A stretch of 62,192 nucleotides of DNA, counting the filler, from an uncultured virus (IMG/VR IMGVR_UViG_2049941000_000870) (lineage: Duplodnaviria; Heunggongvirae; Uroviricota; Caudoviricetes). It is 18 parts of one record of this genome, joined end to end, with 100 filler letters (N's around TTAATTAATTAA, not from the genome) between each part and the next. Parts side by side here need not be neighbours in the genome. Positions count along the whole stretch, not along the records: positions 31,764 to 33,506 come from IMGVR_UViG_2049941000_000870; 17 more parts are not named here. One strand, written 5' to 3'. The position numbers and the translations under genes are program-made. How positions within the stretch are numbered: position 1 is the stretch's first letter; each line of letters opens with the position of its first letter. This document shows positions 4,092 through 54,500 of the stretch, piece by piece. Below the pieces are notes generated by a model. It did no database searches, was not told the origin of the DNA, and was given only the letters and a program-made list of their open reading frames with translations.

Positions 4092-5410
4092 NNNNNNNNN
4101 NNNNNNNNNNNNNNNNNNNNNNNNNNNNNNNNNNNNNNNNNNNNNNNNNNNNNNNNNNNNNNNNNNNNNNNNNNNNNNNNNNNNNNNNNNNNNNNNNNNN
4201 NNNNNNNNNNNNNNNNNNNNNNNNNNNNNNNNNNNNNNNNNNNNNNNNNNNNNNNNNNNNNNNNNNNNNNNNNNNNNNNNNNNNNNNNNNNNNNNNNNNN
4301 NNNNNNNNNNNNNNNNNNNNNNNNNNNNNNNNNNNNNNNNNNNNNNNNNNNNNNNNNNNNNNNNNNNNNNNNNNNNNNNNNNNNNNNNNNNNNNNNNNNN
4401 NNNNNNNNNNNNNNNNNNNNNNNNNNNNNNNNNNNNNNNNNNNNNNNNNNNNNNNNNNNNNNNNNNNNNNNNNNNNNNNNNNNNNNNNNNNNNNNNNNNN
4501 NNNNNNNNNNNNNNNNNNNNNNNNNNNNNNNNNNNNNNNNNNNNNNNNNNNNNNNNNNNNNNNNNNNNNNNNNNNNNNNNNNNNNNNNNNNNNNNNNNNN
4601 NNNNNNNNNNNNNNNNNNNNNNNNNNNNNNNNNNNNNNNNNNNNNNNNNNNNNNNNNNNNNNNNNNNNNNNNNNNNNNNNNNNNNNNNNNNNNNNNNNNN
4701 NNNNNNNNNNNNNNNNNNNNNNNNNNNNNNNNNNNNNNNNNNNNAATTTTGGTAATTGCCTATGTTTTTCTTTAACCATTTGCACGCTTTGCCAATCATC
4801 GTTTTGTCAGCCCATTTTGCACCTTCGATGAAACAATTACATTCTAATGGCGATGAACCAATGGCATATCTACTATATGCAACCTGTTTCATTTGTTCTT
4901 TTCTTTTCATATCAATAACAAATTATTTATTTAATAGAATCATTGGAACACGGACAATCAGGGTTGTGGACAATACCACAACGACCGCCATGCGAGGCGA
5001 TAATGTCAAACTGGATATAGTCGTGACCCTTGTATTTGAACTCTTTGACAGACCCCACCTTTNNNNNNNNNNNNNNNNNNNNNNNNNNNNNNNNNNNNNN
5101 NNNNNNTTAATTAATTAANNNNNNNNNNNNNNNNNNNNNNNNNNNNNNNNNNNNNNNNNNNNAAGGCTACGAGCTGGATTCAAGGATAGCCGACATAAAC
5201 AAGAAAAAGGCGGACAACAAGAAGGCGAAACTCATCGCCGCATTCGTCTTCAGGACCGACGGGAAGACCGAGCTAACGCTGACATCGCACCAGGACGTGC
5301 TGGACAGGCTCTACCTGAGGAACACGGACCCAGAATGGGGGGCCAGCAGGTACGGGACCGTGTCCAAGATTGTCTATTCCAGGGACCCGAACCTCATAGA
5401 NNNNNNNNNN

Positions 5411-9544: not shown

Positions 9545-9697
9545 TGTCGTAATTTCTTTCTATTTCATACACACCGTAATCATCCCTATAAAGCTTGNNN
9601 NNNNNNNNNNNNNNNNNNNNNNNNNNNNNNNNNNNNNNNNNTTAATTAATTAANNNNNNNNNNNNNNNNNNNNNNNNNNNNNNNNNNNNNNNNNNNN

Positions 9698-20397: not shown

Positions 20398-20587
20398 NNN
20401 NNNNNNNNNNNNNNNNNNNNNNNNNNNNNNNNNNNNNNNNNTTAATTAATTAANNNNNNNNNNNNNNNNNNNNNNNNNNNNNNNNNNNNNNNNNNNNTTC
20501 CTGAGCTCTTTCTCGACCCAGTCTATCGCCTCGTAAAGGTCTTTCCCGTTCTTCTCGAACCATTCGTCGTTCCAGTAATGCATAATT

Positions 20588-21327: not shown

Positions 21328-22060
21328 GTTATTCCTCCTTTGTTTTCTTATACACCTGCCTCTCATTGAGTTCCCGCACTGTTATCTCGCCGCTGTTCAG
21401 CTGTGCCAGCAGGTTCCTTCCGCGCTTCACGCCTTCGTTATATATCTCCTCGCGCTCCATGTCAAGCTCCTTCATCAGGTCCCTGCGCATATTGTCCTCC
21501 TTTGTGCGGACTTCAATCATCTTGTCCTGTATGGCCTTGCAAAGCTCCTTCAACGGTTTGACCGAATCCGTCGGGACGGCGAANNNNNNNNNNCCTGTAC
21601 CTGTAATATACAAAAAATGCTGGACAGTGGAAAACTATTCACCGTCCAGCTCTATGTCCACCCATCTCTTGCACGCTTTAAACGAATAATCGTGACCGAA
21701 ACCGCAGCCGTTTTCGTCAACNNNNNNNNNNNNNNNNNNNNNNNNNNNNNNNNNNNNNNNNNNNNTTAATTAATTAANNNNNNNNNNNNNNNNNNNNNNN
21801 NNNNNNNNNNNNNNNNNNNNNCAGCCACGAATTCTATTTCGTTGTCTGTGTCGTAATCGTGGAGCCCATTTACGTCTACATTTACGAGCGTTCCAAACCA
21901 CAAACAGCCGTCACCTTTAAAAGTACCGCAAGCTGGGCCTGACCGATGAGTCGGTTTTACAGCCAATATACCATCGAATTTCACTTTTCTTTGCAAATCA
22001 ACCGAAAAATACATCCGCTCTGCATCCAAAGAATAGTATTTATCAAATTTTATATCTGTG

Positions 22061-22468
22061 TCAGTCATCTTGCCAGGTTTTATAGCATCCGTCATAATCC
22101 TTGTCCGTGCCGAGTAGCGAGCCTGTCTCGTAGTTATACGGAACACAATACTTATACCTATAGCCGTTAAGGCATACATAGTTCTTCGGATGGTTCAGGT
22201 TGATGAAACCGAACAGTGACGGAACCCAAAGGTCATCCTTTTCGTCACGTACAAGAACCTGCTGGAACGGTTTAAGTTTCAACGGCGAATAGGGAATCTT
22301 CTCAATATCATCCTGATATTTGAACGATATGAACAGCACGACAGTCTCGTCTGGACCGTATGCGACTTTCTGGACATAATATCCGCTCGGGCTTATCGCG
22401 GTTATGTCATACTCAACCCCCTCGTACCTGATTCGGTCGTTCTCTTTGAATCTGGTTTGGTCTTCCAT
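22061..22468 (-). CDS. Hypothetical protein (LKPFQQVLVRD...W type)
   Basis: ORF starting MEDQ directly after the upstream stop. Confidence 0.55.
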   Translation of the reverse strand: MEDQTRFKENDRIRYEGVEYDITAISPSGYYVQKVAYGPDETVVLFISFKYQDDIEKIPYSPLKLKPFQQVLVRDEKDDLWVPSLFGFINLNHPKNYVCLNGYRYKYCVPYNYETGSLLGTDKDYDGCYKTWQDD

Positions 22469-22469
22469 A

Positions 22470-23183
22470 CTATCTGATATTTGTTGTGTCTGATGTATTC
22501 CGTATGTGTATGCAACACGGTCTTCCGAGTTTGATTGTGTCGCCAACATGATACAGTGTGTTTGTCCTGAAATGCACTTCATTGTTTGGCCCAAAACGGT
22601 CCAGGCCCTTTATGGTAACCGTGTATGTATACGCATTTGTCTTTTTGTATTCAACACACATGACTATTCCGTTTTCGTCTTCGAGCGTATGTGTGCAGGA
22701 GCACATTGGGACAGCGGCCAGTGCAACAAAAGCAAGCAGGAAAAGCTTTCTCAACAGCTTTTTCCACCACGGAAGGTTGTCCTCGTACCTTCGTGTCATG
22801 ATATCGTTGTATGCCATGGCAATGTCTGCGGTTGTCACTTTGGCTTCTTCAAGGAGTTTCTCATCCAACGGAGGGCAGCTCTCAATTTTCTGGCAACCTT
22901 GGATTCGGCCACCTAGGATTCCGACCCCTTCGTCTTTCTTCTCCGTAGGCTCTTCTGGTTTTATCGGGTTGCCGTAGATATCAACTTCCTCAAGCATAAA
23001 CATGTTTTTACAATCTGGACAGTCACAGTACCTGAATTTCCTGATTTCATGCCCCTCCATAACCATCAAGATTGGCGTCGCAATCGTATACGTATCCGAC
23101 CTGTCAGCAATGAATTCGCACCCGCAGTTATGGCATTTTACTTCATATTTCTGTTTTACTTCGCCGTGTTTGATTATTTCCAT
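22470..23183 (-). CDS. Zn-ribbon and membrane-segment protein
   Basis: CHNC...CPDC and a hydrophobic stretch LFLLAFVALAAVPMCSC. Confidence 0.55.
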   Translation of the reverse strand: MEIIKHGEVKQKYEVKCHNCGCEFIADRSDTYTIATPILMVMEGHEIRKFRYCDCPDCKNMFMLEEVDIYGNPIKPEEPTEKKDEGVGILGGRIQGCQKIESCPPLDEKLLEEAKVTTADIAMAYNDIMTRRYEDNLPWWKKLLRKLFLLAFVALAAVPMCSCTHTLEDENGIVMCVEYKKTNAYTYTVTIKGLDRFGPNNEVHFRTNTLYHVGDTIKLGRPCCIHIRNTSDTTNIR

Positions 23184-24134
23184 TTGATATTAAAAATTGT
23201 TTGTTAAAATAGATTCATATGTTTTACCACCATATCCCGTTAAAGTGTTTCGCGAACAGAACCCTTCCGTTTTCAGCCCGTTGCACAAGGGAATCAAACT
23301 CCGCCATTTTCTCNNNNNNNNNNGTTTGTCGTTGTCTTTTTCTCTCATCATCTCCCTTGTCCATCCGCTGTCGATTCTCCAATATATGAAGTCACATAAT
23401 TTCTCTTTCAGACGGTTGAACCATTCTATCTTCGATACACGATACGGCGGTCTTAGATACTTGTTAGGGCCATATAATAGTTGGGTGAGGCTTCCGTCCC
23501 ACCAGCACAGGTACTCATCCCTGTATGTGCCGTATTTCTCCTTTCCGCAGACACGGATTCTGTNNNNNNNNNNNNNNNNNNNNNNNNNNNNNNNNNNNNN
23601 NNNNNNNNNNNNNNNNNNNNNNNNNNNNNNNNNNNNNNNNNNNNNNNNNNNNNNNNNNNNNNNNNNNNNNNNNNNNNNNNNNNNNNNNNNNNNNNNNNNN
23701 NNNNNNNNNNNNNNNNNNNNNNNNNNNNNNNNNNNNNNNNNNNNNNNNNNNNNNNNNNNNNNNNNNNNNNNNNNNNNNNNNNNNNNNNNNNNNNNNNNNN
23801 NNNNNNNNNNNNNNNNNNNNNNNNNNNNNNNNNNNNNNNNNNNNNNNNNNNNNNNNNNNNNNNNNNNNNNNNNNNNNNNNNNNNNNNNNNNNNNNNNNNN
23901 NNNNNNNNNNNNNNNNNNNNNNNNNNNNNNNNNNNNNNNNNNNNNNNNNNNNNNNNNNNNNNNNNNNNNNNNNNNNNNNNNNNNNNNNNNNNNNNNNNNN
24001 NNNNNNNNNNNNNNNNNNNNNNNNNNNNNNNNNNNNNNNNNNNNNNNNNNNNNNNNNNNNNNNNNNNNNNNNNNNNNNNNNNNNNNNNNNNNNNNNNNNN
24101 NNNNNNNNNNNNNNNNNNNNNNNNNNNNNNNNNN

Positions 24135-24176
24135 GATGTGCTCTAAGCTTTCGCAAACCAACTGAGCTACGAGCGC
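24135..24176 (-). tRNA. tRNA 5' fragment with enlarged D-loop (anticodon in gap)
   Basis: GCGCTCG-TA-GCTC...GAGC. Confidence 0.7.
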
Positions 24177-24195
24177 TGTTCATGCTGTTTGACAG

Positions 24196-24269
24196 GGTGG
24201 ATGGTGGGACTCGAACCCACGACTCACGGAACCACAATCCGTTGTTCTGCCAACTGAACTACATCCACC
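24196..24269 (-). tRNA. tRNA-His(GTG)
   Basis: G-1/C73, loop TT-GTG-GT. Confidence 0.95.
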
Positions 24270-24293
24270 ATATTACACTTTGGATAATTTTCG

Positions 24294-24369
24294 TGGCTCC
24301 GATGGGACTCGAACCCATACGCCCTTACGGGCAAGGGATTTTAAGCCCCTCGCGTCTACCAGTTCCGCC
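24294..24369 (-). tRNA. tRNA-Leu(TAA), 5' end in gap
   Basis: Loop CT-TAA-AA, variable arm, A73. Confidence 0.92.
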
Positions 24370-24464
24370 NNNNNNNNNNTGGGTAAGGGACCAGACCCGA
24401 CCTAATCGCCCCGACGCTCGGCTACATCCGTAAACACCCGACCAAGACAGTGGCCTGTTTTACC

Positions 24465-24880
24465 AGGTTTGAGGTGGAAGTGTGTCCATGCACGGCTTTC
24501 CCTTTTTAATAACGCCTCCCTTTCGGGGGACCGAGTGCCTTTGCACGGCAGTCCTATAATCCACGTCAGTGGTACCGCGCAAGCATTGCATTCTGTCGGA
24601 CAGCCTCTTTCAACAATTTATCGCTTCGGCTCCGTCTTGCATCGCCACACAGTTGCCTGTAGTGTGAGGCAGCTGACGCTGTGTGGACCGTACTCTCTTC
24701 CAAGTTATAGGCGGTAATGCTTCGAGCAGATTGCATAGCAAGGAATACTTATATCGGCTTTACGCCCTTCTGGCCTTGCCAGGTTGCTATCGGGAACGCT
24801 TCCTTGCCATGAGCGCTGCCGAGACACGTCCCGACGGCCCGATGCGGTTGCCCGTATATCATTTCAGGGCGGTTTTGTTG
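24465..24880 (-). ncRNA. Candidate large structured RNA
   Basis: Many nested helices and no credible ORF, inside the tRNA array; strand assumed from neighbours. Confidence 0.45.
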
Positions 24881-24883
24881 TCC

Positions 24884-24991
24884 GTGCCAGATAAAAACAG
24901 CCTTCAGCCCAAGAAAACTTTTAAAGAGGCAGCTGTTCTGTGGATTGCCTATGGGAATTGTGCTGTGCTTTTCTTGGTTCAGTCTGGCTAC
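24884..24991 (-). ncRNA. Conserved pseudoknot motif, copy 1
   Basis: Shared with the interior of 32920-33114, with a compensatory base-pair change. Confidence 0.7.
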
Positions 24992-25001
24992 GAACCTTTA
25001 G

Positions 25002-25084
25002 TAGCGGGTGAGGGACTCGAACCCCCGAGGCGTTGTGCAGTGGGTTATGAGCCCACCCCGATGACCATCTTCGGACAACCCGCA
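25002..25084 (-). tRNA. Initiator-type tRNA-Met(CAT) with long variable region
   Basis: 1:72 mismatch, GGG/CCC in anticodon stem, loop CT-CAT-AA. Confidence 0.85.
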
Positions 25085-25096
25085 ATGCTGTTCTTG

Positions 25097-25169
25097 AGCG
25101 GCAGACGGGACTTGGACCCGCGACTTCGGACTTGGAAGGACCGCGCTCTACCAACTGAGCTACTGCCGC
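25097..25169 (-). tRNA. tRNA-Gly(TCC)
   Basis: Loop CT-TCC-AA, T73; T-loop TCCAAGT. Confidence 0.88.
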
Positions 25170-25170
25170 G

Positions 25171-25318
25171 TAAGCACGGGGGTCAGGTCCCCCGCGGACC
25201 TCTTGCTGTCCAGCCCTGGGCTAGGCGGCAAGACCAATGTAAGAATTGTTCTCGTTTATTCCTACTCACTGCAGTCTACTCATCTCATACTCAACCGCCG
25301 TCAAAACCAAACGAGCCC
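25171..25318 (-). ncRNA. ssrA: tmRNA coding piece (split or permuted tmRNA), tag ENNSYIGLAA*
   Basis: 5' GGGCTCG-TTTGG-TTTT-GAC; AATAAAC before the resume codon; tag frame 25253-25221; terminal pseudoknot. Confidence 0.75.
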
Positions 25319-25646
25319 ATAAATGCAAGAGACGAATCTCATATTAAGTTTTCGTCTCTGTAACTGTCCCGACATCCTGGTCAGGCAGCTCAGTGGAGGC
25401 GGGGCTCGAACCCGCTCACCTGGCCGTGCGCTGGCACGCGCCGCACTCACGGTTTATCCGTCCCCACGAACTGGCTTTGGACTATGTACATCTTGCCTTC
25501 AAGAGGCCAGCCGCTCTCATACTCGCCGACAGACGTTTGCAACCGAACTGTCAGCTTTCCTGTTGGGACTTCCCAGATGCCACCCGAATCGTGACACCAT
25601 TGTCGTTTCTTTCAAAAACAAGGGGCGTGATTTGAANNNNNNNNNN

Positions 25647-26335
25647 GCTGATTCCTGCCACACTATGTTACCATAGCCAAACAAGTGGAACCGACTTGTG
25701 AAATGCCCCTCAATTCATGAGACACCTCCTTGGGAGTCGAACCCAAGAGCTAAATGTTTGTTGTGGTCTGGACTGTCTCTTTGCCATATTGAAATTCTTG
25801 CAAGGCAAAACTTACTTATATAACCCTTTCTTTATTTTTCCGTTCTTGTCCTACGGCTTAAGCTATTCACCATAGGGGAGCGCAGTACTATTTCAACTGA
25901 AATACTTAGATTAATTTCATAAGTTTTAAATTTCAACTTAGACACCACCCGTTCAGTCTCTACACGATTATGAGTGTTATCCATACCAAACTTCTCTTTC
26001 AAAGATGTAGAGGAAGTAACTACTCAATTTCGCTCGGCATAGTCCTACACATTATTGGTTAGTGTTTCACTTGATGTGCCAGGGTGATATTTACCCACCT
26101 CCCATGGTTGGCGAAGGCGTCTGTGTGAATACAGATTAGCCCGCTTTCTAAACACACCAACTAAGGATTTCCACCGAATTTAGGCGGAGGATTGGGAACA
26201 GCACGGGAAATTAAGATACTCCGCGATTTGTATCACCCTGTTGCTTTTATTACCAATCCACCACTATGGGGTTTCCCGCCATAGCGCACAATTTTACTAT
26301 GAGTCAGCCGCTCTAACCATCTGAGCTAAGGGACC
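25647..26335 (-). tRNA. tRNA-Ile(CAT, lysidine-type) interrupted by a group I intron; 3' end lost in gap
   Basis: 5' exon 26335-26299 GGTCCCT...GCTGA-CT-CAT; 3' exon AA-TCAGC 25653-25647. Confidence 0.85.
25654..26298 (-). ncRNA. Group I intron (IC3-like), 645 nt, position 36/37
   Basis: P1 CAU/GUG with U.G; P 26161-26184, Q 26026-26045, R 25948-25969, S 25770-25782; terminal G. Confidence 0.9.
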
Positions 26336-26475
26336 TGACCAGGGTTTATATTACCGACAGCCCCTGCACTGCCCGCCGACACATACGGTTCGGTGTTGGG
26401 TGGTGGCAACCTCTCGGCTGCACCCAAGAATGGTACGTTCCAGGCTAATCGCTAGCATTTCACCTGGCTTTGTTT

Positions 26476-26530
26476 TGGCGGAGGGTGTAGGATTCGAACC
26501 TACGGGGGCTGTGACACCCCAACGGTTTTC
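26476..26530 (-). tRNA. 3' exon of tRNA-Ser (probably TGA)
   Basis: GAAA-ACCGT, long variable arm, T-arm, G73-CCA. Confidence 0.8.
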
Positions 26531-26691
26531 CTTGCCACACTATGTTACCATAGCCAAACAAAAGCAGAGGGATTTAACTTATACTGCTCAACTTCCTTTT
26601 AATTTAATTTTCTTTGTTTGTTGTGGTCTGGACTGTCTCTTTACCATATTGAAATTCTTGCAAGATATAGTTTTCACCGAACGGATTCCTT
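26531..26691 (-). ncRNA. Group I intron 3' part (P8', S, P9, omegaG)
   Basis: Near-identical S and P9 blocks to intron 25654-26298. Confidence 0.85.
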
Positions 26692-26703
26692 NNNNNNNNN
26701 NTG

Positions 26704-26777
26704 TGGACCCGCTGGGATTCGAACCCAGGCTAAGGGCTTGCAAAGCCCCCGTGCTAACCAACTATCACTACGGGCCC
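26704..26777 (-). tRNA. tRNA-Ala(TGC)
   Basis: G3.U70, A73, loop TT-TGC-AA. Confidence 0.92.
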
Positions 26778-27197
26778 GTGTGCCAGCTCTTCCATCGGAC
26801 GACTGTGCTGGCGACCCAATCCGCCGATTTCCGTACATTTCCAAGTATTTCGGCAACTTCCAGCCGCTCGCACGGACTGGTTATAGGTCAGTGANNNNNN
26901 NNNNNNNNNNNNNNNNNNNNNNNNNNNNNNNNNNNNNNTTAATTAATTAANNNNNNNNNNNNNNNNNNNNNNNNNNNNNNNNNNNNNNNNNNNNGGCATC
27001 CTCTATGATGGAACGCAAAGAGCTTTCATCAAGCGAGATTATCATATTTTAAGGTTTTATTGATTATTCTTTTTTGTTATATATCTGCCTCTTGGGGTTA
27101 TATACTTTCTTATTTCTTCGTAAANNNNNNNNNNNNNNNNNNNNNNNNNNNNNNNNNNNNNNNNNNNNNNNNNNNNNNNNNNNNNNNNNNNNNNNNN

Positions 27198-27474
27198 TTA
27201 GAAACTTTACATTTGTGTTGTTATTTTTATTCTTTCCACAGAAATTGTCTGTTTGAGTATGGCAATTCGGGCATAAAATTTGTAAATTTTCAATTCTGTT
27301 GTCGTTATGGTTTCCGTTAATATGATGTAATTGCAACTTAAGCGGGTTGCCATTCCACTCACTAATGCCGCATACTTCACATTTATATTCCTTTAATTTA
27401 CTATAAAGTAAACGTTTAATTGTGTTATGGTTGGCTCTATGTGTTTCATTTGCAAAATACTCTTCGTCAGACAA
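27198..27474 (-). CDS. HNH endonuclease, partial
   Basis: CEVCG...LQLHHINGNHNDNRIENLQILCPNCH. Confidence 0.85.
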
Positions 27475-28396
27475 TGCTGTGTATTGGTTACGGTTTGTAG
27501 CCTCCCAGGGANNNNNNNNNNGTCGTCAAGGTTCCACAACTCCAAATCGGAATAGCCTCTCCTTTTTTTCTGGAACCACCACCTTAGGCTGTTCATGATG
27601 TTCTCGACTTTGTATTTGATTCTCATTTCATTTAATTTTTTTCCAATATTTGTAATGNNNNNNNNNNNNNNNNNNNNNNNNNNNNNNNNNNNNNNNNNNN
27701 NNNNNNNNNNNNNNNNNNNNNNNNNNNNNNNNNNNNNNNNNNNNNNNNNNNNNNNNNNNNNNNNNNNNNNNNNNNNNNNNNNNNNNNNNNNNNNNATATA
27801 AACCAGAAATGGCTGTAATCTTCATCGAAAACCGCTTTTATGAAATCCGTGTTGATTCTTTTCGACAGGTATTCTTCAACCCATTCGCTTGGATATGTCC
27901 TTATGAGTCCTTCGTCCAATTCGTTGTTGTCGGCCATCCGCTCAAACATAGGTTTGAAACACCTTATCGGNNNNNNNNNNNNNNNNNNNNNNNNNNNNNN
28001 NNNNNNNNNNNNNNTTAATTAATTAANNNNNNNNNNNNNNNNNNNNNNNNNNNNNNNNNNNNNNNNNNNNTGTTGCTGGTACTTGGATTGTTCCAAAATG
28101 GGCTGTTGACAGATTATATTTTTCAATTATTTTGCGTATTTTTTTATAATATCCTTCAACACCTCTTAAACCAAGCATTGTACATACTTGNNNNNNNNNN
28201 CACGACGGTGTCCGCGTTCCTGCATACGCCTCTGTAGGTCTTGCCGACGACCAGTTCGCTCTTCGGTATCGGGATATAATTGCCCGAGTTCAGGCTGTGC
28301 TCCGACTCGTAAATCCTTTTGTTCCAATCCAGTTCTTCCTGTTCCATGACAAATTGTGTTCAATGTTGTTGTTAATATACAAAAAAATGTATCCTG

Positions 28397-30770: not shown

Positions 30771-30897
30771 GTTTTCTTTTGTAGCGGGAGGGGGGCCNNN
30801 NNNNNNNNNNNNNNNNNNNNNNNNNNNNNNNNNNNNNNNNNTTAATTAATTAANNNNNNNNNNNNNNNNNNNNNNNNNNNNNNNNNNNNNNNNNNNN

Positions 30898-30923: not shown

Positions 30924-31763
30924 GTGTTTTTGATTATTTCAGTTCCTGTTTCGCCAGGAGTCTCTTCAGCAGCTCGTTCTGCTCCCTTAGGAGCCTGATT
31001 TCCTCGCTGTCGCCAGGCTTCTGTTCAGGCAGCGGTTTGTGTACAATCTCCACCCTTCCGCCGTCGACCACGCGCATCTGGTCGCTCCTGTCCATAATCT
31101 CCGCCGCGTGCGCCGCGCGCCCGCCAGCCATGAAGGTCCGTGTAAAATTTCACATCNNNNNNNNNNACCTATACCCAAATGTTATTGTTTAGATTGTTTC
31201 AACATAATTGTCCAACGCTTCTATCACACCGTTCGCGACAAGCGGTATCAGGGTGTTGAACGAGTCTATGCAATCGCTTATGACCTGCAGAGANNNNNNN
31301 NNNCCGCCTTCCATCTCTGGAATATGACTTCGGACTCGCGCCTGATGTGCTCGTTCATTTCGTCATTGTTGTCCATAATCTTTGTGTTTTAATGTCTTTT
31401 TGTTTGGGTAGTCGGACTCGGACCGACAGGACTGTCGGAACGCGGGACCATTGCGGGCTGCACCCCGCTGGACCGCTGTAACCGACAGCCCCCNNNNNNN
31501 NNNTCCAAAGGCGTGTTCGGACCCTTGATGTTGTACCTTGCAACCGTGAGGAGATAACCCTTCAGTTCGTCCTTCCAGTGCTCTTTCAACCCGTTCGGAC
31601 CGCCGCATATCGTGCAGTGCCGCACAAGGCACCAGTTCTCGATGATTTGCTGGGACAGGTTGTNNNNNNNNNNNNNNNNNNNNNNNNNNNNNNNNNNNNN
31701 NNNNNNNTTAATTAATTAANNNNNNNNNNNNNNNNNNNNNNNNNNNNNNNNNNNNNNNNNNNN

Positions 31764-31887
31764 TCGCGTTTGACAGCGCCCTGCACGGGCCGCACCACTC
31801 CGCGCCGAACTTGACGCAGTTCACCGTGTCTGAAGAGGACACGAACTCGTTGAATTCCGTTTCTGTGGAAAGTTTCCTGATTTCCAT
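31764..31887 (-). CDS. Thioredoxin, partial
   Basis: FGAEWCGPC. Confidence 0.85.
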
Positions 31888-31921
31888 TTGCACTTGTTTT
31901 TTTTTGTTGTTGATAAACAGT

Positions 31922-32119
31922 CTACTCAAAAAGCGCCCTGTATGGCTTGATTTTCTCCGTCGCCGACTCCATGAGCAGCCTGACCGCGTAGGAAGTCGTG
32001 CCCAGCATCTCGGCAATCTCCCTGTTCGACAGCTCGTCAGTCCCCCCGAAGCCGTATTTCATGGCCAGCACGGCGGCCTCGTCGTCCGTCAGCTCCTCGG
32101 ATATCACCCTGTGCAGCGC
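31922..32119 (-). CDS. Sigma70 region 4 fragment (C-terminus of 33906-34628)
   Basis: LTDDEAAVLAMKYG...SNREIAEMLG. Confidence 0.7.
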   Translation of the reverse strand, partial: ALHRVISEELTDDEAAVLAMKYGFGGTDELSNREIAEMLGTTSYAVRLLMESATEKIKPYRALFE

Positions 32120-32129
32120 NNNNNNNNNN

Positions 32130-32387
32130 CGTCCTTATTTAATACAGACGCTATCTGCTTTATTTGGGGATTTCATTTAGGTCTTAAAAACTTATTTTCG
32201 CTCGGTGTAGTCCTTATGCATTATTGTTTAGCATTATCTAGGAAAATAAGTAATTGGGCGGCTATGTTCTTCTCTCCTTTTAAAGAGCCGTTCTTTTCTT
32301 TCCCAATTACTAAGGATTTCCACCGAATTTAGGGGATTCTGCACAGGGATTTCTCGCCCGTGCATTTTCATGTGCCAGTCACTTCCC
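32130..32387 (-). ncRNA. Group I intron-like 5' half (P2, P3, P, Q) with non-tRNA 5' flank
   Basis: 24-nt identity with the P block of intron 1; Q at 32195-32213; P2 with bulged C and GAAA loop. Confidence 0.8.
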
Positions 32388-32421
32388 GTTTTTCAATCTT
32401 TCAAAGAACATTTTTTTTTCA

Positions 32422-32493
32422 GTGTGACGATGGGACTCGAACCCATATCCCCGCACAATGTGCAGTGTGCTTAACCATTTACACTACGCCACT
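32422..32493 (-). tRNA. tRNA-like gene with 5-nt anticodon loop (possible pseudo-tRNA)
   Basis: Normal D and T arms; CTGCA-CATTG-TGCGG; A1.A72 mismatch. Confidence 0.65.
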
Positions 32494-32578
32494 GAAGCCC
32501 TCTGGTGTGCAACCCAGACATCTGGCCGCGGCTTGCACGCCTCGGCGGACGGTTCGGGCTTTTGAGATAAACCTACAC

Positions 32579-32888
32579 TATTTTATTATTGATAGTTTTT
32601 TTTTCTTATTTAATCTACCATAGTTTTCTGTCATTGCATGGTGATTCGGACATAATACTTGTAAATTATTAATATCATTATTAAAACAATCACCGTCAAT
32701 ATGGTGAATCTGCAATATGTCGTAGTGTGTATATGGGTTGGTTTCGTTGAACCCACAAATATCACACTTATGGTCATGTAAATCTAGTAGATACTTTCTG
32801 ACATATCCACTAATCTGGCCAAATTTATCACACCCACAAATTTCACCTTTCAGCCATTTTTGAACATTTGTTTTATATTCAAAGTCTT
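32579..32888 (-). CDS. HNH endonuclease, 5'-truncated (absent from ORF track)
   Basis: Manual translation: KCDICG...LQIHHIDGDCFNNDINNLQVLCPNHH. Confidence 0.8.
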
Positions 32889-32919
32889 NNNNNNNNNNGA
32901 GGGGATACGCCCCAGTTTT

Positions 32920-33114
32920 GTGAAGAACCGAGGATTCGAACCTCGGAGTGTCGTGTGTTCCGCAACAACAGCCTTCAGCACAAGAAAACTTTTAAAGAGG
33001 CAGCTGTTCTGTTTTTCATATGAACCGACGGACCAATTTCAGCTTAAAATCCGTTGACTATGCTTTTCTTGTTTCAGTCGGAACAATGCGACACACCATA
33101 CTTTCTTTTCTTCA
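32920..33114 (-). ncRNA. tRNA-like RNA (acceptor stem plus T-arm) enclosing the pseudoknot motif, copy 2
   Basis: TGAAGAA/TTCTTCA, CCGAGG-TTCGAAT-CCTCGG, GTGTCG/CGACAC, TGTTCCG/CGGAACA. Confidence 0.7.
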
Positions 33115-33119
33115 ACCAG

Positions 33120-33192
33120 AGCGGGAGAGGGGATTCGAACCCCCGACCTTCTGCATGGCAAGCAGACGCTCTGCCAACTGAGCTACTCCCGC
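33120..33192 (-). tRNA. tRNA-Gly(GCC)
   Basis: Loop TT-GCC-AT, T73. Confidence 0.95.
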
Positions 33193-33196
33193 GACT

Positions 33197-33506
33197 GAAA
33201 GCGACCGACCGCACGACAAAGCCACACTATGTTACCATAGCCAACTTATCCTCTGTAACTGCTATTTAGTTTGTATTACTCGACCCTTTCTTTTCTTTCA
33301 TACAACATCAAGTTACATATTTCCGAGTAAATTGTTGTGGTCTGGACTGTCTCTTTGCCATATTGGAACTCTTGCAAGATGGTTTNNNNNNNNNNTTCAT
33401 ACCTACAACTTCCTACACCCGAGTAGTCCTCTGAATCTTGATGGTAATATATTCTCAAACCAATTCCGACTTAGGCATCTCCCGTTCAGTCTCTACACGA
33501 TTATAA
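33197..33506 (-). ncRNA. Group I intron-like 3' half (R, P8, S, P9) with non-tRNA 3' flank
   Basis: R 33481-33503, S 33344-33356, P9 33221-33244; candidate omegaG at 33217. Confidence 0.8.
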
Positions 33507-33606
33507 NNNNNNNNNNNNNNNNNNNNNNNNNNNNNNNNNNNNNNNNNNNNTTAATTAATTAANNNNNNNNNNNNNNNNNNNNNNNNNNNNNNNNNNNNNN
33601 NNNNNN

Positions 33607-36889: not shown

Positions 36890-36989
36890 NNNNNNNNNNN
36901 NNNNNNNNNNNNNNNNNNNNNNNNNNNNNNNNNTTAATTAATTAANNNNNNNNNNNNNNNNNNNNNNNNNNNNNNNNNNNNNNNNNNNN

Positions 36990-41602: not shown

Positions 41603-42206
41603 GCCTGCCCTTCTTTTTTTTCCCTTCCCTTCAGCCACTCCTGGCGCTCCGCCTCAAGCCTTCGGTAGGTATCCTCTATCTCCGACGGTGCCGCATGATA
41701 CANNNNNNNNNNNNNNNNNNNNNNNNNNNNNNNNNNNNNNNNNNNNTTAATTAATTAANNNNNNNNNNNNNNNNNNNNNNNNNNNNNNNNNNNNNNNNNN
41801 NNAAACATATAAACAACATCATCAACATTTGTCAGTGTGATGTTTGAATAATCCCACAATCTCCAATTTGTCTTGTTTCCTTCCGATATGTAAATCAACG
41901 GTTTTGTCGTGCCAGTATTGGTACCGTTGTGTTGCATCCCAATCGTTGTACTGGCTGAAACCGCTTTAAATTCAAGGCATTTGTCAAATGTCGGGTCCTT
42001 GCATGTTATAGTGTCACCGTAATACATATCAGTCATACCAATCGTACATCCAGAACCAAACCCGACAACATTGTCCCCAAGAAACACACACCTGAAATTA
42101 TTCGCATCATTTGTCATTATTTCAAGTGTATCCTGTAACCCTATCGTTATTTCTGAAGTTTGGCCATTGGATAAGGTCTGTACCGAATCATTGTTANNNN
42201 NNNNNN

Positions 42207-42647: not shown

Positions 42648-43847
42648 NNNNNNNNNNNNNNNNNNNNNNNNNNNNNNNNNNNNNNNNNNNNNNNNNNNNN
42701 NNNNNNNNNNNNNNNNNNNNNNNNNNNNNNNNNNNNNNNNNNNNNNNNNNNNNNNNNNNNNNNNNNNNNNNNNNNNNNNNNNNNNNNNNNNNNNNNNNNN
42801 NNNNNNNNNNNNNNNNNNNNNNNNNNNNNNNNNNNNNNNNNNNNNNNNNNNNNNNNNNNNNNNNNNNNNNNNNNNNNNNNNNNNNNNNNNNNNNNNNNNN
42901 NNNNNNNNNNNNNNNNNNNNNNNNNNNNNNNNNNNNNNNNNNNNNNNNNNNNNNNNNNNNNNNNNNNNNNNNNNNNNNNNNNNNNNNNNNNNNNNNNNNN
43001 NNNNNNNNNNNNNNNNNNNNNNNNNNNNNNNNNNNNNNNNNNNNNNNNNNNNNNNNNNNNNNNNNNNNNNNNNNNNNNNNNNNNNNNNNNNNNNNNNNNN
43101 NNNNNNNNNNNNNNNNNNNNNNNNNNNNNNNNNNNNNNNNATATTGATAACAATAATACGCAAGAGTGGTAGCTGGCAGCTCTGGCGCGGTTGCCAAGCC
43201 TGTACATCCATAGAACATTTGATAATAGCACTGAGTTTCCATTGTCGTCGCTGGCAACTCTGGCGCCGTTGCCAAACCTGTACACCCTCTGAACATATTA
43301 GAATAGCACTGGGCTGCAAGTGTCGTCGCTGGCAACTCTGGCGCCGTTGTCAAACTCGTGCATCCATTGAACATATGTTGATAACAATAACCTGCAAGCG
43401 TCGTCGCTGGCAACTCTGGCGCTGTGGTAAGCTTAGTACTCAAAAATAACCGATAAAATGCAAAAGGTTTTAAAACGTCGTCATCCCCAATTACATTGAT
43501 GAGTGAATTTACACTTCCACTTAATAAAACGTTTTTATCTGTGGTAAAACAACTGTAATTTGAAGTACTGTTTGANNNNNNNNNNNNNNNNNNNNNNNNN
43601 NNNNNNNNNNNNNNNNNNNTTAATTAATTAANNNNNNNNNNNNNNNNNNNNNNNNNNNNNNNNNNNNNNNNNNNNACCATAGCAATCTGATTCAACAGCT
43701 GATAACGTTATTGTTTTGGTTTCAGAATCAGTTACATACCACCACTGTGGTACACCGTTAACATTATAAGGTATTTCAGTTCCTTGTGGTTTTATAAAAA
43801 CGCCACTACTNNNNNNNNNNCCAGACGAGGGGTAGGGCCGAAAGGGA

Positions 43848-44537: not shown

Positions 44538-45965
44538 TTCGGTGTGTGTTTTATATTGCTGTGTTATTTTGATTCTTCTTTGCTATAATTTCAGTTACAC
44601 ATTTACAATGGTCCAATTGTTTGGGATTCCGCTGGTTCCAGAGTCTATTGATGTGCCACTTGGTTTTACGAATGTACCAGTGGAGGCGACATTCTGGACC
44701 CAGTTGGTTGCATAACTCGTATTCCAAGACGTTGCGCCGACCTTGATATAATTAAGGCTTGTGCATCCTTGGAACATTTGTTGATAACAACCACTTGCAA
44801 GCGTCGTGGCTGGCAGCTCTGGCGCCGTTGCCAGGCTTGTACATCCCTGGAACATTTGTTGATAACACTGAGTTGCATTTGTTAGATTCGTCGCTGGCAG
44901 CTCTGGCGCGGTTGTCAAGCCTGTACANNNNNNNNNNNNNNNNNNNNNNNNNNNNNNNNNNNNNNNNNNNNTTAATTAATTAANNNNNNNNNNNNNNNNN
45001 NNNNNNNNNNNNNNNNNNNNNNNNNNNGCCAAAATAACAACTATTTGCATTTGTTAGATTCGTCGCTGGCAGAGATGGCGCCGTTGTCAGGTTTGTACAT
45101 CCTTGGAACATACAAATATAGCAACTACTTGCAAGTGCCGTCGCTGGCAACTCTAACGGAGCCGTCGCCAGACCTGTACATCCTTGGAACATGTTTTGAT
45201 AACACTGAGTTGCAAGCGTCGTCGCTGGCAGCTCTGGTGCCGTTGCCAGGCTGGTGCATCCGTAGAACATATTTGAATAGCAATATTGGGTCAATGCCGT
45301 CGCTGGCAACTCTGGCGCCGATGTCAGGTTTGCGCAGTTGTTAAACAATTTGTAAAAACAATAGTCATCCTGTATAACAGTTGAATTAACAGAACTGTCC
45401 AAAAGCGACATGATGTTTCCGCCACACCTAACTTTTTTGTTGAACGGGATGAAATATGCATATATATTTGTATTGTTTTGAAACCTGTTCTCTGACGTGG
45501 CTCTCAAAAAAACAAAATCACCTTTTTTTGGCAACGTTATAAGCGTGAAATCGTCAAACACACCACGTGTTGCACTGGCCCATTCATGCCATGATATGCC
45601 GTCAGTTGAGTATTGGAGAGTTATGTTTGAATTTGAAGGCGTCCTTAATCTGATTTGGATATTGTCCTCCTCAGCCTGGAAANNNNNNNNNNCATGTAGT
45701 TTTTATCGGAAGTCGGTTTTTCAATAATTCTTTCGCTAAAAGGTGCTGTGTTCCCGTGTATCAGTTTGTTGTTGAAAACTAACATATATGTTTGTGTTTG
45801 TGTTTTTATATACCTTCAACAGTCCAGTTGTTTGGAATTCCGCTGGCACCACTTGTGATTGTTATACCGCTTGGCTTTACAAAAGTACCAGTTGAGGCGA
45901 CATTAGCAACCCAATTACTTGCGTATGAAGTATTCCATGACGTGGCACCGACTTTNNNNNNNNNN

Positions 45966-46734: not shown

Positions 46735-48028
46735 NNNNNNNNNNGCGATATAATCGGTTGAATTGGTTGTTGTGATGGTTATTCCTTGAGGGTGGGTCAA
46801 AGCAACCTGTCTGGTCTGGTCGTTTGCAAGGGTGTAGGAAACACCATCAACCGAATATGAAAAACCGTATGTGTTCGGTCCACTTGCGGACAATGTAACG
46901 GTTTGTGAAAACACATCCGTGTTCCATCCAGTCGGAACACCACTTGCGTTTGATGTTGGAATATTTGCAAGATTTGACGGTTTGTATAATGTGCCAGCAC
47001 TTGCGACATTATAAAGCCAATTTGTAAAATATGAAGTGGTCCATGATGAAACATTTGGTGTACAAGCGCTTGTTAAGTTGGTACAGCCATAATACATTTG
47101 AGCACAACATGAACTATTCAATGTTCTTGCTTTTTGTAAGTCACTACCACTTGTCAAATTTGTACATCCATAGAACATTTGTTGATAACAACCACTTGCA
47201 AGCGTCGTCGCTGGCAGCTCTGGCGCCGTTGCCAGGCTTGTACATTCTCGGAACATTTGATAATAACAATTACTCACATTTGTTAGATTCGTCGCTGGCA
47301 ACTCTGGCGCCGTTGCCAAACTTGTACATCCATAGAACATGCTATGATAACAACCACTTGAAAGCGTTGTCGCTGGCAGCTCTGGCGCCGTTCCCAAACT
47401 CGTGCATCCACTGAACATTTGTTGATAACAATAACTTGAAAGCGTCGTCGCTGGCAACTCTGGCGCCGTTGCCAGGCTTGTACATCCATNNNNNNNNNNN
47501 NNNNNNNNNNNNNNNNNNNNNNNNNNNNNNNNNTTAATTAATTAANNNNNNNNNNNNNNNNNNNNNNNNNNNNNNNNNNNNNNNNNNNNCGTTCTGCCAT
47601 TCCTGCAGGCTTCCAATTGCAATGCTGCTGATTTCAACAGAATCAGCCAAACCACTTACTTCGGCCAATATCTCGTTTTTCCACCCGTTCAGCTCTGAAA
47701 TGGCGTCCGCGTTCGTCGTGGCCATATGCGTGACATCGGCCATGCTTCCGATGAGGAAACCTACACTTCCGACGGTTATGTTGTAATCGCTTGAAAGGTC
47801 GTTGATTGCGTTGTGGTTGGCACTCACTGAGCCGACAATATCGCTTATACTGGCGACTGTTATATCGTAATTACTTGACAATGTGTCAATTGCGTCAGCA
47901 TTTGCGTTGACTGACCCCATTATGTCGCTTATGCTGCCGACTGTCGTGGTGTGCCAGTCATTCAACGTCCCGACTGAAGCCGTGAGGCCTTCAATCTGCT
48001 CGGCGTGTGTCTGCGAAGNNNNNNNNNN

Positions 48029-51446: not shown

Positions 51447-51546
51447 NNNNNNNNNNNNNNNNNNNNNNNNNNNNNNNNNNNNNNNNNNNNTTAATTAATT
51501 AANNNNNNNNNNNNNNNNNNNNNNNNNNNNNNNNNNNNNNNNNNNN

Positions 51547-54500
51547 TTCATCGGCCGAACCGACGCCGTCCGCATGCACAAACACACTGACACCGTCTAT
51601 ATCGACACGCATTGTGTTCTCGAGAAGGGATTCCGACAGTTCGTTTGTTGACGGGTGCACATTCTCCGTCAGGATTGACAGGTCGTGGATACCGACAGTC
51701 GCAACGGCCCTGTCGTCGGAAAGCGACATCGGCGTCCCTTCGAATATCGCGGTGAACTGGTATTCGGTCGGAAGCGTGACATCGACAAGCCTTGACGCGG
51801 ATGTGTTTCCGTCCGACCACATGAGGAACCTGGCCCCGTTGTTCTGGCCCTCGGTTGCCTTGACAAAGCAGTAGCCGTGCCCAGTTTCGTCTATCGTAAT
51901 GTACGACGGATTGTCAAGCTGCACGGTTTCGTCTATCTGCATGATGAACCTCTGGCTGTTCTCGGCGCCAGTGTTCGTTATGGCCTGTATCGTGTCTATC
52001 GTGTTGTTCGTCCTGGCCGTTACTGGATAGTATTCCTCGAGCTCGCCGTATGCGGACTCGTTGTACAGATACGCCCTGTCTGGGAGCATGTGCTGGTTGT
52101 TGCCAGACACCGCCTCGCCAGTGACCGCGTTCGCGTACATCCATCCGTAGATTCCGACCGTAGAACCGTTGAACGACGTGGCGATGTTTCCAGCGTGGTT
52201 CAGCCTCCTTCCGACCTTGACCTTGGCCTTCACGTCACCTTCGGTGGCGAACCAGGCCTTGTACGACAAATCCTCACCCATGCTTGTCGGTATGTCCGCA
52301 AGTATCGGGCCCCTTGAACTGGAACCGTCTGTCCAGCAGTAGAACATGCCGCCCTGGGTGTTCACATTGGCTGTGAGCGTGATGAACTTGACTACATTCG
52401 GGTCGAACTCGAACCCGTCCTGTGTGAGTTGCACGACATTGCTGTGCTCAAGGTTCGGATTGAGCGTGTAGTCCCCGTTCGAATCCAGTGTGCCGACTGT
52501 CATGGCGTACAGGTTGGGGCGCCTTGCCCTGACATACTTGCAGGTGACGGCAACCGTGCCAGACGGTGTTCCGCTGCCAGAGTTTGTCGCAAGGTGCAGC
52601 CTGCAGTAGTATTCGTCGCGTTTCCTGTAGACCGCCCTGAATATATAGCCGTCGGCGGAAACTGGGTTCTCGCTGTCGGTTGCGTCCTGCGGTATATACT
52701 CGGTGTCGAGCCTGAAGCTCGGATTTATGGAAGTGTAGGTTTCCGTGGCGTTCTCTATCTCGGACATTCCGTCATCCTCCCATTTCATCGGGACCACCTC
52801 CCATCTGTCGAACTCATACCTGTCACTGTAGAGGTCCGATATCGTCGTGTTCAGTTTCACGATTGTACCCTGGAAGGCCTCGAAGTGTGTGCCGTCCATG
52901 CAGTCGTAGTGGACGTCTCCCATGACCGAACCGTTGTCGAACATGGAGAAGCTGTCCCTCACGATGTGGGTGTAGAGGTCTGAATGTTCATAGTCGTCGT
53001 AATCCGATTCACATGGTGTGTATGTGTACAAGGCCCCGAATCCGTCACCTCTGACCGTTATCATATACCAGTTCCTGGCCTTCACCTTGTCCTTGTCGGA
53101 AAGCCCAGTCTCGTCCGCGCCTGGCGTGTATACAAACTGCAGGTGGCCGCTTCCGTCAGATGACAGCATGTTGCTGGCGAGCGACGGGTCGGTGTTCCAC
53201 GTGCCGTTCGGGAACCATGTGGCGAAATGGTCCTGGGTCCACTCCCTGGTATCGGAAACGGCGTTGTTTCCGAGCCACCTCCAGACTTTCCTCCAGCTGA
53301 CGTTGGAATAGCTGCAATACGGTGAATGGGTTTCATTCCGTGTGAAATAGCTCGCATACGCGCGGTCCCAGTCCTCTGGTTTCTCGTTGTCCTGGTCAAG
53401 CGCGTCCTGCACCTTCATGTAGCCGCCCATGTCGTCGCCTCCGTCGAGGTCGGNNNNNNNNNNATTCGTTGAATTTAGATATGGCGTCGTCAGCCGCGTC
53501 TTTCTTCGCGGTGTCCGTTATGTCGGCATATGCCGTCACGGTCGTCGTCGTGCCGATTACGGTGTTCACTGTCCCAGTGGCCATCTCGTTCGCACCGACG
53601 GAAATCCATACTGGCCATAGCTCGTTGTTGTCGGCTGTTGGCTCGTAGTAGTTTTTGAAAATCGGGGCTGTGCGGGACGGGGACTCGCTCCATCCGCAAA
53701 GCAGGTACCCTTCCCTTGCCACCATGTTGTAGTTGGGGAGGGTGACCTGGTCGAACCCCAGGTCGAACCCGTCCTCTGGATAACTGTATTCTATGGTGTT
53801 GTTGGACACGTTGAGCATCCCGTCGAACACGCTGTTGCTCACCTGACCTTCAGCCAGATTGAGTGTCAATATCGTTACATTTGCCATTTTGGTGTATGTT
53901 TGGTTTTTACGTTATTCCTTATTTCGTTATCTCAANNNNNNNNNNNNNNNNNNNNNNNNNNNNNNNNNNNNNNNNNNNNTTAATTAATTAANNNNNNNNN
54001 NNNNNNNNNNNNNNNNNNNNNNNNNNNNNNNNNNNCGTCGGCCTTGTAGTATCCGTTTTTGAAGTCAACGGCCACCGCATCCCTGTTCATATACTGGGCG
54101 TAGAACGTAACCTCCCTGTTCGTGATGTTGTGTGTGTCGCACAGGTCAGCGAGGTTCACCGACTGCCCGACCTGGTACGCCGTGTCCCCTATGACGAGTG
54201 CCCCGCTGTCGGTATATCCGAAATGCCAGCCCTCGAAGAGCTGCGGAACGGTCTGTCCGTCATAGGTCTCGGTCGGGGCGTCGAACTCGCTCTTCGAGAG
54301 GGAGTAGAACTTCGACACGGTCTGGACATCGGCCTGTGCTCCGCCGACGCCGTTCACGGTCTCGAACTTGACCGTGTAAATGTCAAGCAGGTCCGCATCC
54401 TCGAAATGCAGCTCGACTGGGTCTGAGTTAGGAATTGGGGCCACGACGTATTCCTTGGCCTTGCCCTCGTCGGTGATGAAGGCGACCCTCTTGCCGATGA

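Follow-up and report, generated by a model that had tools for sequence, protein, structure and literature searches.

A repeated RNA motif behind two tRNA genes of an uncultured caudovirus, free-standing in one copy and set in a tRNA-shaped frame in the other

Phage tRNA clusters have been known since the 1970s to encode small stable RNAs. Two of them, RNAC (species 1 RNA) and RNAD (species 2 RNA) of bacteriophage T4, are non-coding RNAs of 119-139 nt encoded on the tRNA strand; the T4 record places rnaD and rnaC head-to-tail behind tRNA-Arg, with spacings of 1 and 6 nt, near the homing endonuclease gene segB. Here we describe an RNA motif that occurs twice, in a similar placement, in sequence from an uncultured virus of the Caudoviricetes (IMG/VR IMGVR_UViG_2049941000_000870). 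The window, that is, the whole stretch of 62,192 nucleotides that was analysed, holds one copy behind a tRNA(CAU) gene (copy 1) and another behind a tRNA-Gly(GCC) gene (copy 2); copy 1 stands by itself, and copy 2 takes the place of the anticodon arm in an RNA shaped like a tRNA. The motif constitutes an RNA structure that is genuine, under selection and not part of any catalogued family; its novelty lies in an anticodon-arm replacement that is a discrete module, selected for pairing, and that also occurs by itself.

The T4 RNAs are the described molecules that the locus recalls most closely. The ends of rnaC are paired and carry a terminal 5-bp T-arm with the loop UUCGAAU, which is also the loop of copy 2; copy 1 has no tRNA-like part. 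An anticodon is absent from rnaC, rnaD and copy 2 alike, the T4 RNAs have no Rfam family, as is the case for the motif, and the two HNH genes of the present tRNA island are comparable to segB in the T4 tRNA cluster. By analogy, the motif would match in kind the small stable RNAs of phage tRNA clusters. It differs in having no sequence likeness to them: for a covariance model built from both motif cores (R1), the highest score in the T4 tRNA region is 8.9 bits, and it falls outside rnaC and rnaD. Copy 2 further differs in its cleaner 7-bp acceptor stem and single long arm, and its insert is a discrete motif also found alone, outside any tRNA frame; we know of no free-standing counterpart of an insert for the T4 RNAs. 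The passages on RNAC and RNAD in two published accounts state that their roles are unknown (PMC3014915; PMC9697503).

Copy 2 also resembles transfer-messenger RNA (tmRNA) in its acceptor stem, its T-arm, its stemless D-region and the long helix that replaces the anticodon stem. It differs from tmRNA in its third acceptor pair, A33112-U32923, which is A3-U70 and not G3-U70, in having no tag reading frame, and in its length of about 195 nt without the usual series of pseudoknots. The pair G3-U70 is the alanine identity pair of tmRNA. In mascRNA, from the 3' end of MALAT1, and in laboratory 'tRNA scaffolds', a tRNA-shaped minihelix serves to have an unrelated RNA released and stabilised by tRNA enzymes, the cargo of the scaffolds being placed in the anticodon stem. 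These systems are eukaryotic or engineered, whereas copy 2, known from sequence, would be a natural phage gene; the Rfam mascRNA model aligns to its T-arm and acceptor only (17 bits, E 0.97). Group I introns of tRNA genes likewise form a large insert at the anticodon position, and true group-I-like introns are present in the island, but the insert of copy 2 measures about 130 nt, its exons do not rebuild a tRNA, and the motif shares no core blocks and no repeat family with the local introns. A group I intron was rejected for copy 2 on size (below about 200 nt) and for want of an Intron_gpI match at E up to 10, in scans that also made no call on the group-I-like introns of the island.

Comparison with the 4227 families of Rfam 15, at gathering score and also at E up to 10, placed the motif in none of them. 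No family reached its gathering score, and the rows obtained at E up to 10 were at chance level (ZEB2_AS1_2, 12.8 bits; snoZ182, 15.8 bits; mascRNA as given above), so that a motif which the initial annotation of this DNA had failed to recognise is still without a known relative among catalogued RNAs. A literature search that left supplements aside found no description of the motif or of a motif-bearing tRNA frame. Copy 2 is not a tRNA, an intron-bearing tRNA, a tmRNA, a group I intron or a member of an Rfam family.

The two copies share two blocks separated by a differing spacer. A repeat search of the window aligns 24893-24941 with 32964-33012 (family D8; 47/49 nt identical, 96%, with a single mismatch in the final 46 nt) and 24963-24984 with 33058-33079 (family D14; 20/22 nt identical, 91%), and the spacers between these blocks, of about 25 nt in copy 1 and about 50 nt in copy 2, cannot be aligned. 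A 26-nt core pattern allowed up to 3 mismatches matches the window at both copies and nowhere else, and none of 100 shuffles contained any match. With filters off, R1 recovers both copies from the 62-kb window at the scores listed in Table 1, the next match having 12.4 bits and an E of 0.83. Read on the minus strand, the motif runs in the order closing helix (P0), ACUGAA, inner helix (P1), interior, and an invariant tail GCUGAAGGCUGUU behind P1. The strands of P1 are (A/C)CAAGAAAA and UUUUCUUG(U/G), forming 9 bp; its interior starts with GCA, continues with the variable spacer and ends with the invariant CAGAACAGCUGCCUCUUUAAAAG. CUGAA lies on either side of the stem, as had been noted from the sequence at the outset.

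All nine pairs of P1 are standard in both copies (18/18 cells), and within its strands the copies differ only by one compensatory pair at the base of an 8-bp stem, A-U in one copy against C-G in the other. The strands of P0 are unrelated in sequence between the copies, yet they pair in both, and to these closing stems, already described in the initial annotation together with the compensatory change, the present analysis adds an extension in copy 1 (Table 1). Among 200000 random pairs of flanks drawn from the window, a Watson-Crick helix abutting the motif had a frequency of 0.00069 for at least 7 bp and 0.0084 for at least 5 bp. Since two unrelated P0 helices form at such low chance rates, they are strong evidence that pairing is under selection.

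Read on the minus strand, the frame of copy 2 proved to be as first drawn: a 7-bp acceptor stem, a T-arm, no D-stem, and an arm carrying the motif in place of the anticodon arm. The sequence encodes no CCA; the discriminator would be C32920, and the variable region consists of one nucleotide. From its base, the long arm comprises the helix GUGUCG/CGACAC (33094-33089 with 32953-32948), a small internal loop and P0. The fold of the whole frame has an energy of -55.7 kcal/mol (z -2.28; 5/200 shuffles equal it). ARAGORN does not call the frame at its default setting, with -ps90 or -ps80, or with introns of 0-700 nt, and the Rfam tRNA model makes no call on it. A tRNA with or without an intron was rejected, as there is no D-stem and no cut point, sought by hand, gives U33 together with a purine at 37.

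Each copy begins directly behind a tRNA, copy 2 at 4-5 nt past tRNA-Gly(GCC) and copy 1 at 5 nt past tRNA(CAU). The RNA most probably corresponds to the minus strand, judging from three features of the sequence: all 10 tRNAs called by ARAGORN at default settings lie on it, the T-loop UUCGAAU fits the consensus on the minus strand only, and one pair in the P0 extension of copy 1, U-G as read here, would become a C-A mismatch if the plus strand were read. The initial annotation had seen neither this strand nor the make-up of the window from 18 contigs nor the closeness to T4 RNAC/RNAD. A consensus scan for promoter-like and terminator-like sites found none in the intervals from tRNA to motif or elsewhere near the copies. 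The peptide TEQLPL*, to which the initial annotation had drawn attention as a possible coincidence, does read on the minus strand in both copies, but neither copy offers a usable coding frame; a small peptide was rejected because copy 2 has a stop two codons upstream of TEQLPL* and copy 1 has no start within 24 codons. The shared frame is a by-product of nucleotide conservation.

Table 1. Positions of the motif, its helices and surrounding features along the window
Feature	Positions	Strand	Basis
Motif core, copy 2	32963-33078	-	alignment, R1 147.7 bits, pair counts
Copy 2, spacer	33060-33011	-	
Copy 2, conserved 3' block	33012-32964	-	
Copy 1, motif on 11-bp closing stem, without tRNA frame	24880-24995	-	R1 112.9 bits
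P1, copy 2	33072-33064 with 32988-32980	-	
P1, copy 1	24977-24969 with 24917-24909	-	
P0, copy 2 (UGUUCCG/CGGAACA)	33085-33079 with 32962-32956	-	
P0, copy 1 (GCCAG/CUGGC)	24988-24984 with 24890-24886	-	
P0 extension, copy 1 (GUUCGU/ACGGAC)	24995-24990 with 24885-24880	-	
Candidate pseudoknot strands, copy 2	33008-33002 and 32973-32967	-	
Copy 2, tRNA-shaped RNA, about 195 nt	32920-33114	-	read from sequence
Acceptor stem, 7 Watson-Crick pairs, 5' strand UGAAGAA	33114-33108 with 32927-32921	-	
D-region, 13 nt, contains GG, no stem drawable	33095-33107	-	
T-arm, 6-bp CCGAGG/CCUCGG, loop UUCGAAU	32928-32946	-	adjoins acceptor 3' strand directly
Long arm in place of anticodon arm, carries motif	32948-33094	-	
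tRNA-Gly(GCC), directly upstream of copy 2	33119-33192	-	ARAGORN; Rfam tRNA 72.1 bits
tRNA(CAU), 84 nt, directly upstream of copy 1	25001-25084	-	ARAGORN; Rfam tRNA 40.5 bits
HNH endonuclease gene, downstream of copy 2	32581-32886	-	translation
HNH paralogue	27064-27474	-	Pfam HNH; tblastn, 46% identity over 56 residues
Two-block module D6/D7 (50-nt + 29-nt, variable middle), 3 copies	33220-33248/33329-33378; 26533-26561/26615-26664; 25656-25684/25755-25804	-	
Repeat family D9	25929-25971/33462-33504	-	88% identical
Repeat family D10	26160-26184/32309-32333	-	100% identical
Linkers 1-9	2416-2515, 5063-5162, 9598-9697, 20398-20497, 21722-21821, 26895-26994, 27971-28070, 30798-30897, 31664-31763		
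Linkers 10-17	33507-33606, 36890-36989, 41703-41802, 43576-43675, 44928-45027, 47490-47589, 51447-51546, 53936-54035		

We favour, with moderate confidence, the reading that the motif is a structured non-coding RNA module of the T4 RNAC/RNAD kind, matured by tRNA-processing enzymes; from the arrangement described above we infer its transcription, processing, stability and any binding function. Both loci would encode one module family on the minus strand, composed of P0, the 9-bp purine/pyrimidine helix P1 and a free spacer, and the invariant unpaired stretches around and inside P1 would form a binding surface. The module would be made within phage tRNA transcripts and excised by host tRNA-maturation enzymes, the 5' end of copy 1 arising when the tRNA(CAU) that lies five bases before it is processed at its 3' end. 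In copy 2, RNase P and 3'-end/CCA processing, as well as stability, would come from the acceptor/T-arm minihelix, and the motif would be held out on the long arm as the working head. The partner would be a protein or be ribosome-associated, the RNA serving as decoy or regulator, which seems likelier than a small ligand or self-cleavage.

The occurrence of the module on its own suggests that function resides in the insert and that the tRNA frame serves as its vehicle. A bolder proposal, which we put forward tentatively and consider rather unlikely, takes the motif for a self-contained head, possibly stabilised by a triplex with CUCUUU in the groove of the purine-rich P1, that exists in two formats, free behind a tRNA or mounted on a natural tRNA scaffold, and captures a host factor in trans, such as a protein of translation, RNA repair or defence that surveys tRNA-shaped RNAs. 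If it were true, the anticodon-less tRNA look-alikes, a class known since T4 RNAC, would gain a first function, and phages would have invented the laboratory tRNA-scaffold trick. The module is in any event a small testable object, with about 110 nt to be offered to partners and a frame of about 195 nt to be offered to RNase P and CCA processing.

Several observations weigh against the reading of a processed RNA module, beginning with the small number of sequences: there are two, possibly from one genome, and the likeness of their blocks could reflect gene conversion or a recent duplication. Searches for relatives were negative throughout IMG/VR, JGI metagenomes, GTDB genomes and GenBank phages. 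In IMG/VR, 0 loci were obtained with each of five DNA patterns, exact or degenerate, that described the motif or the frame; one pattern gave 0 matches among JGI metagenome contigs, and two patterns gave 0 matches among GTDB genome contigs. Comparison of the motif with 50,697 GenBank phage records by blastn returned 22 records, all through short chance matches (best E 1), and the T-arm/acceptor sequence gave T-arm-level matches only. The neighbouring IF3 protein, used as bait, yielded 0 relatives among 11 candidate stretches in IMG/VR and 0 among 122 in JGI metagenomes. When R1 was applied to nine related IMG/VR records, four with an intron block and five with HNH relatives, the best E values were 0.37-0.5; unfiltered scores reached 16.7 bits in AT-rich, unconvincing alignments. 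The covariance model suggested along with the initial annotation finds the two copies and no relatives, and the covariation statistic for P1 is uninformative at n=2 (262/500 shuffles match the observed value).

Parts of the structure are at chance level. The complementarity between AACAGC and GCUGUU, read at first as a pseudoknot, does exist, but an equal 6-bp Watson-Crick helix arises in 695/5000 shuffles of copy 2 and 1118/5000 of copy 1, and neither strand shows covariation; with both strands invariant and the complementarity at chance, the pseudoknot stays a hypothesis. Folding stability is modest throughout, the frame included; the fold of copy 1 has a z of -0.99 and the interior of P1 a z of -0.73 to +1.03, on either strand. 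A hairpin in the spacer was dropped as not significant on both strands, and so was a guide-like role of the spacer, the longest spacer matches elsewhere in the window being 11 nt, which is chance level.

The evidence from other samples is mixed. The conserved block does occur in other samples: 32967-33017 is covered by contigs from two DNA runs and from one run filed as RNA, in three studies. The last of these is the sole signal from an RNA library; it consists of contigs, possibly derived from DNA, that give neither strand nor ends. The flanks (32899-32966 and 33018-33102) are without contig cover in 4 runs, which is uninformative. In two of these runs, contigs match 33118-33244, which takes in tRNA-Gly and an intron end, with 0 differences and then run into unlike sequence, their loose ends lying at 33119, the frame start; the frame is therefore not fixed at the tRNA-Gly site. 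Continuity of the frame comes from one assembly, and the runs that hold 0.91 of the words belong to one sample, possibly the source. The stitched assembly is a weak point in itself, as is a very mobile neighbourhood with group-I-like introns, HNH genes and tRNA fragments.

That neighbourhood gives substance to an alternative that we judge unlikely, in which the motif would belong to mobile DNA, as cargo or as a remnant, and not be a gene whose RNA is itself selected for function: a small insertion module would have landed in a tRNA gene at copy 2, destroying the anticodon and D arms, and in a spacer at copy 1, and may travel with the adjoining HNH homing endonuclease or with the local group-I-like introns. 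The island holds two HNH genes, one of them just downstream of copy 2, and the intron blocks D6, D7, D9 and D10, which in IMG/VR relatives interrupt tRNA anticodon loops; a tRNA-Met(CAU) with a 543-nt intron lies nearby (25723-26334, called by ARAGORN with introns allowed). CUGAA on both sides of the inverted repeat CAAGAAAA/UUUUCUUG resembles a target duplication around terminal repeats, and contigs from other samples agree fully with the window over tRNA-Gly but depart from it right at the frame start. In the motif, however, the interior varies and the sequence outside the inverted repeat is conserved, the reverse of what an insertion element shows. The 7-bp acceptor stem and a 13-bp arm are intact, which would not be kept in a dead tRNA gene; wherever the arm is cut, no canonical anticodon loop results, and allowing introns of up to 700 nt brings no ARAGORN call. 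The insert is far below the size of a group I intron and matches no Rfam intron. The closest homologue of the adjoining HNH gene (62% identity, IMG/VR locus L010) follows a plain tRNA-Pro with no motif, and tblastn detected no HNH remnant behind copy 1.

Improbable, in our estimate, is a self-cleaving ribozyme or aptamer of a new class whose core would be P1, the invariant junctions and either the pseudoknot or a contact of CUCUUU with the groove. Invariant unpaired nucleotides, a covarying helix and a free spacer do make up the pattern of a ribozyme or riboswitch core. CUCUUU is followed by a 5-nt turn and by UUUUCUUG in mirror relation to AAGAAAA, an order that would permit a pyrimidine-purine-pyrimidine triplex, so that, speculatively, a pyrimidine strand might lie in the groove of P1. 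Against this stand the lack of any Rfam 15 ribozyme or riboswitch match at E up to 10, the chance level of the pseudoknot and the hypothetical nature of the tertiary contacts. The location of the copies is not that of a typical 5' leader; copy 1 is followed by about 500 nt without an open reading frame (ORF).

It is also doubtful that the repeat is a DNA-level site of inverted repeats for protein binding or recombination, a functionless duplicate or an assembly artefact. The pairs of P0 and P1 are Watson-Crick whichever strand is read, and a cruciform or a hairpin of single-stranded DNA fits them equally; the geometry of T-arm and acceptor, on the other hand, is strand-specific and RNA-like, and the compensatory pair together with the two unrelated closing helices argues for selection on pairing. 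An artefact might be suspected in 18 contigs stitched from a short-read assembly with many gaps, but the block is also present in contigs of three other studies, which excludes a private assembly error. That copy 2 is a degenerate or specialised tmRNA-like molecule, such as an SmpB decoy, is very improbable: its outline is that of the tRNA-like domain of tmRNA (7-bp acceptor, stemless D-region with GG, long helix, T-arm), as first proposed, and the same bin has a tag region ENNSYIGLAA* within 25001-25416, but the alanine identity element is absent, in line with the initial annotation, the sole frame shared by the copies is closed two codons upstream in copy 2 and leaves no tag frame, ARAGORN and Rfam make no tmRNA call (best model beta_tmRNA, 7.1 bits against a gathering score of 84, on the T-arm alone), and copy 1 is without any tRNA-like domain.

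The window consists of 18 pieces with 17 artificial linkers between them (44 N, TTAATTAATTAA and 44 N each), and the source assembly is a short-read one with many gaps. It contains 9394 N in all, including many runs of 10 N besides the linkers; these runs behave like scaffold gaps, a reading based, for example, on the HNH gene behind copy 2, which has lost in the gap at 32889-32898 the N-terminus that its longer homologue in L010 retains. Neighbourhood across linkers or 10-N gaps was not taken as evidence. Copy 1 lies inside the piece 21822-26894 and copy 2 inside the piece 31764-33506; the two likely belong to one genome, as the pieces share mobile-element families and have the same orientation.

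In four IMG/VR phage contigs, the D6/D7 module stops precisely at the 3' half of a tRNA-Met or tRNA-Leu gene, and it is on this account the 3' end of group-I-like tRNA introns; its blocks have the highest depth in RNA-library contigs, up to 4592. D9 and D10, which are situated upstream of the intron end modules, look like pieces of intron cores. ARAGORN also reports a 'tRNA-Asn(att)' at 32422-32493 (-), which has 38.9 bits in Rfam and a non-canonical anticodon loop with CAU. It is followed by the intron block at 32309-32333 at the spacing seen in the intron-bearing tRNA-Met, and may be the 5' half of a tRNA(CAU) fused to an intron hairpin that mimics a T-arm.

The genes of the window are those of a large phage, among them IF3, a sigma-70-like factor, DnaK, DnaJ-like proteins and thymidylate synthase, alongside BACON and leucine-rich-repeat proteins, and nearly all large ORFs are on the minus strand. 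The public runs that match the window best are bovine gut metagenomes from a single sample, possibly its source. A sigma-factor-like ORF at 31920-32119 (-) is a C-terminal end with region-4-like text that comes after an intron-like stretch and a 10-N gap; the gene is possibly split by an intron or by the assembly.

Around copy 1, the stretch of about 500 nt that separates it from tRNA-Leu(UAA) (24380-24880, -) has an unremarkable folding energy. It contains no ORF of more than about 100 codons in six frames, and neither Rfam at E up to 10 nor blastn against GenBank phages returned a match; a suspected likeness to RNase P RNA or tmRNA found no Rfam match and is not claimed. The tRNA upstream of copy 1 combines a Met-type anticodon loop, CUCAUAA, with a total length of 84 nt and a variable region of about 13 nt, features uncommon in a CAU tRNA. 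ARAGORN reports a 'permuted tmRNA' at 25001-25416 at a relaxed threshold only, over a span that includes two tRNAs, and the Rfam model tmRNA_permuted aligns there to the tag alone (10.9 bits). The tag lies at about 25211-25243 (-), and a T-arm-like element is found at 25385-25420.

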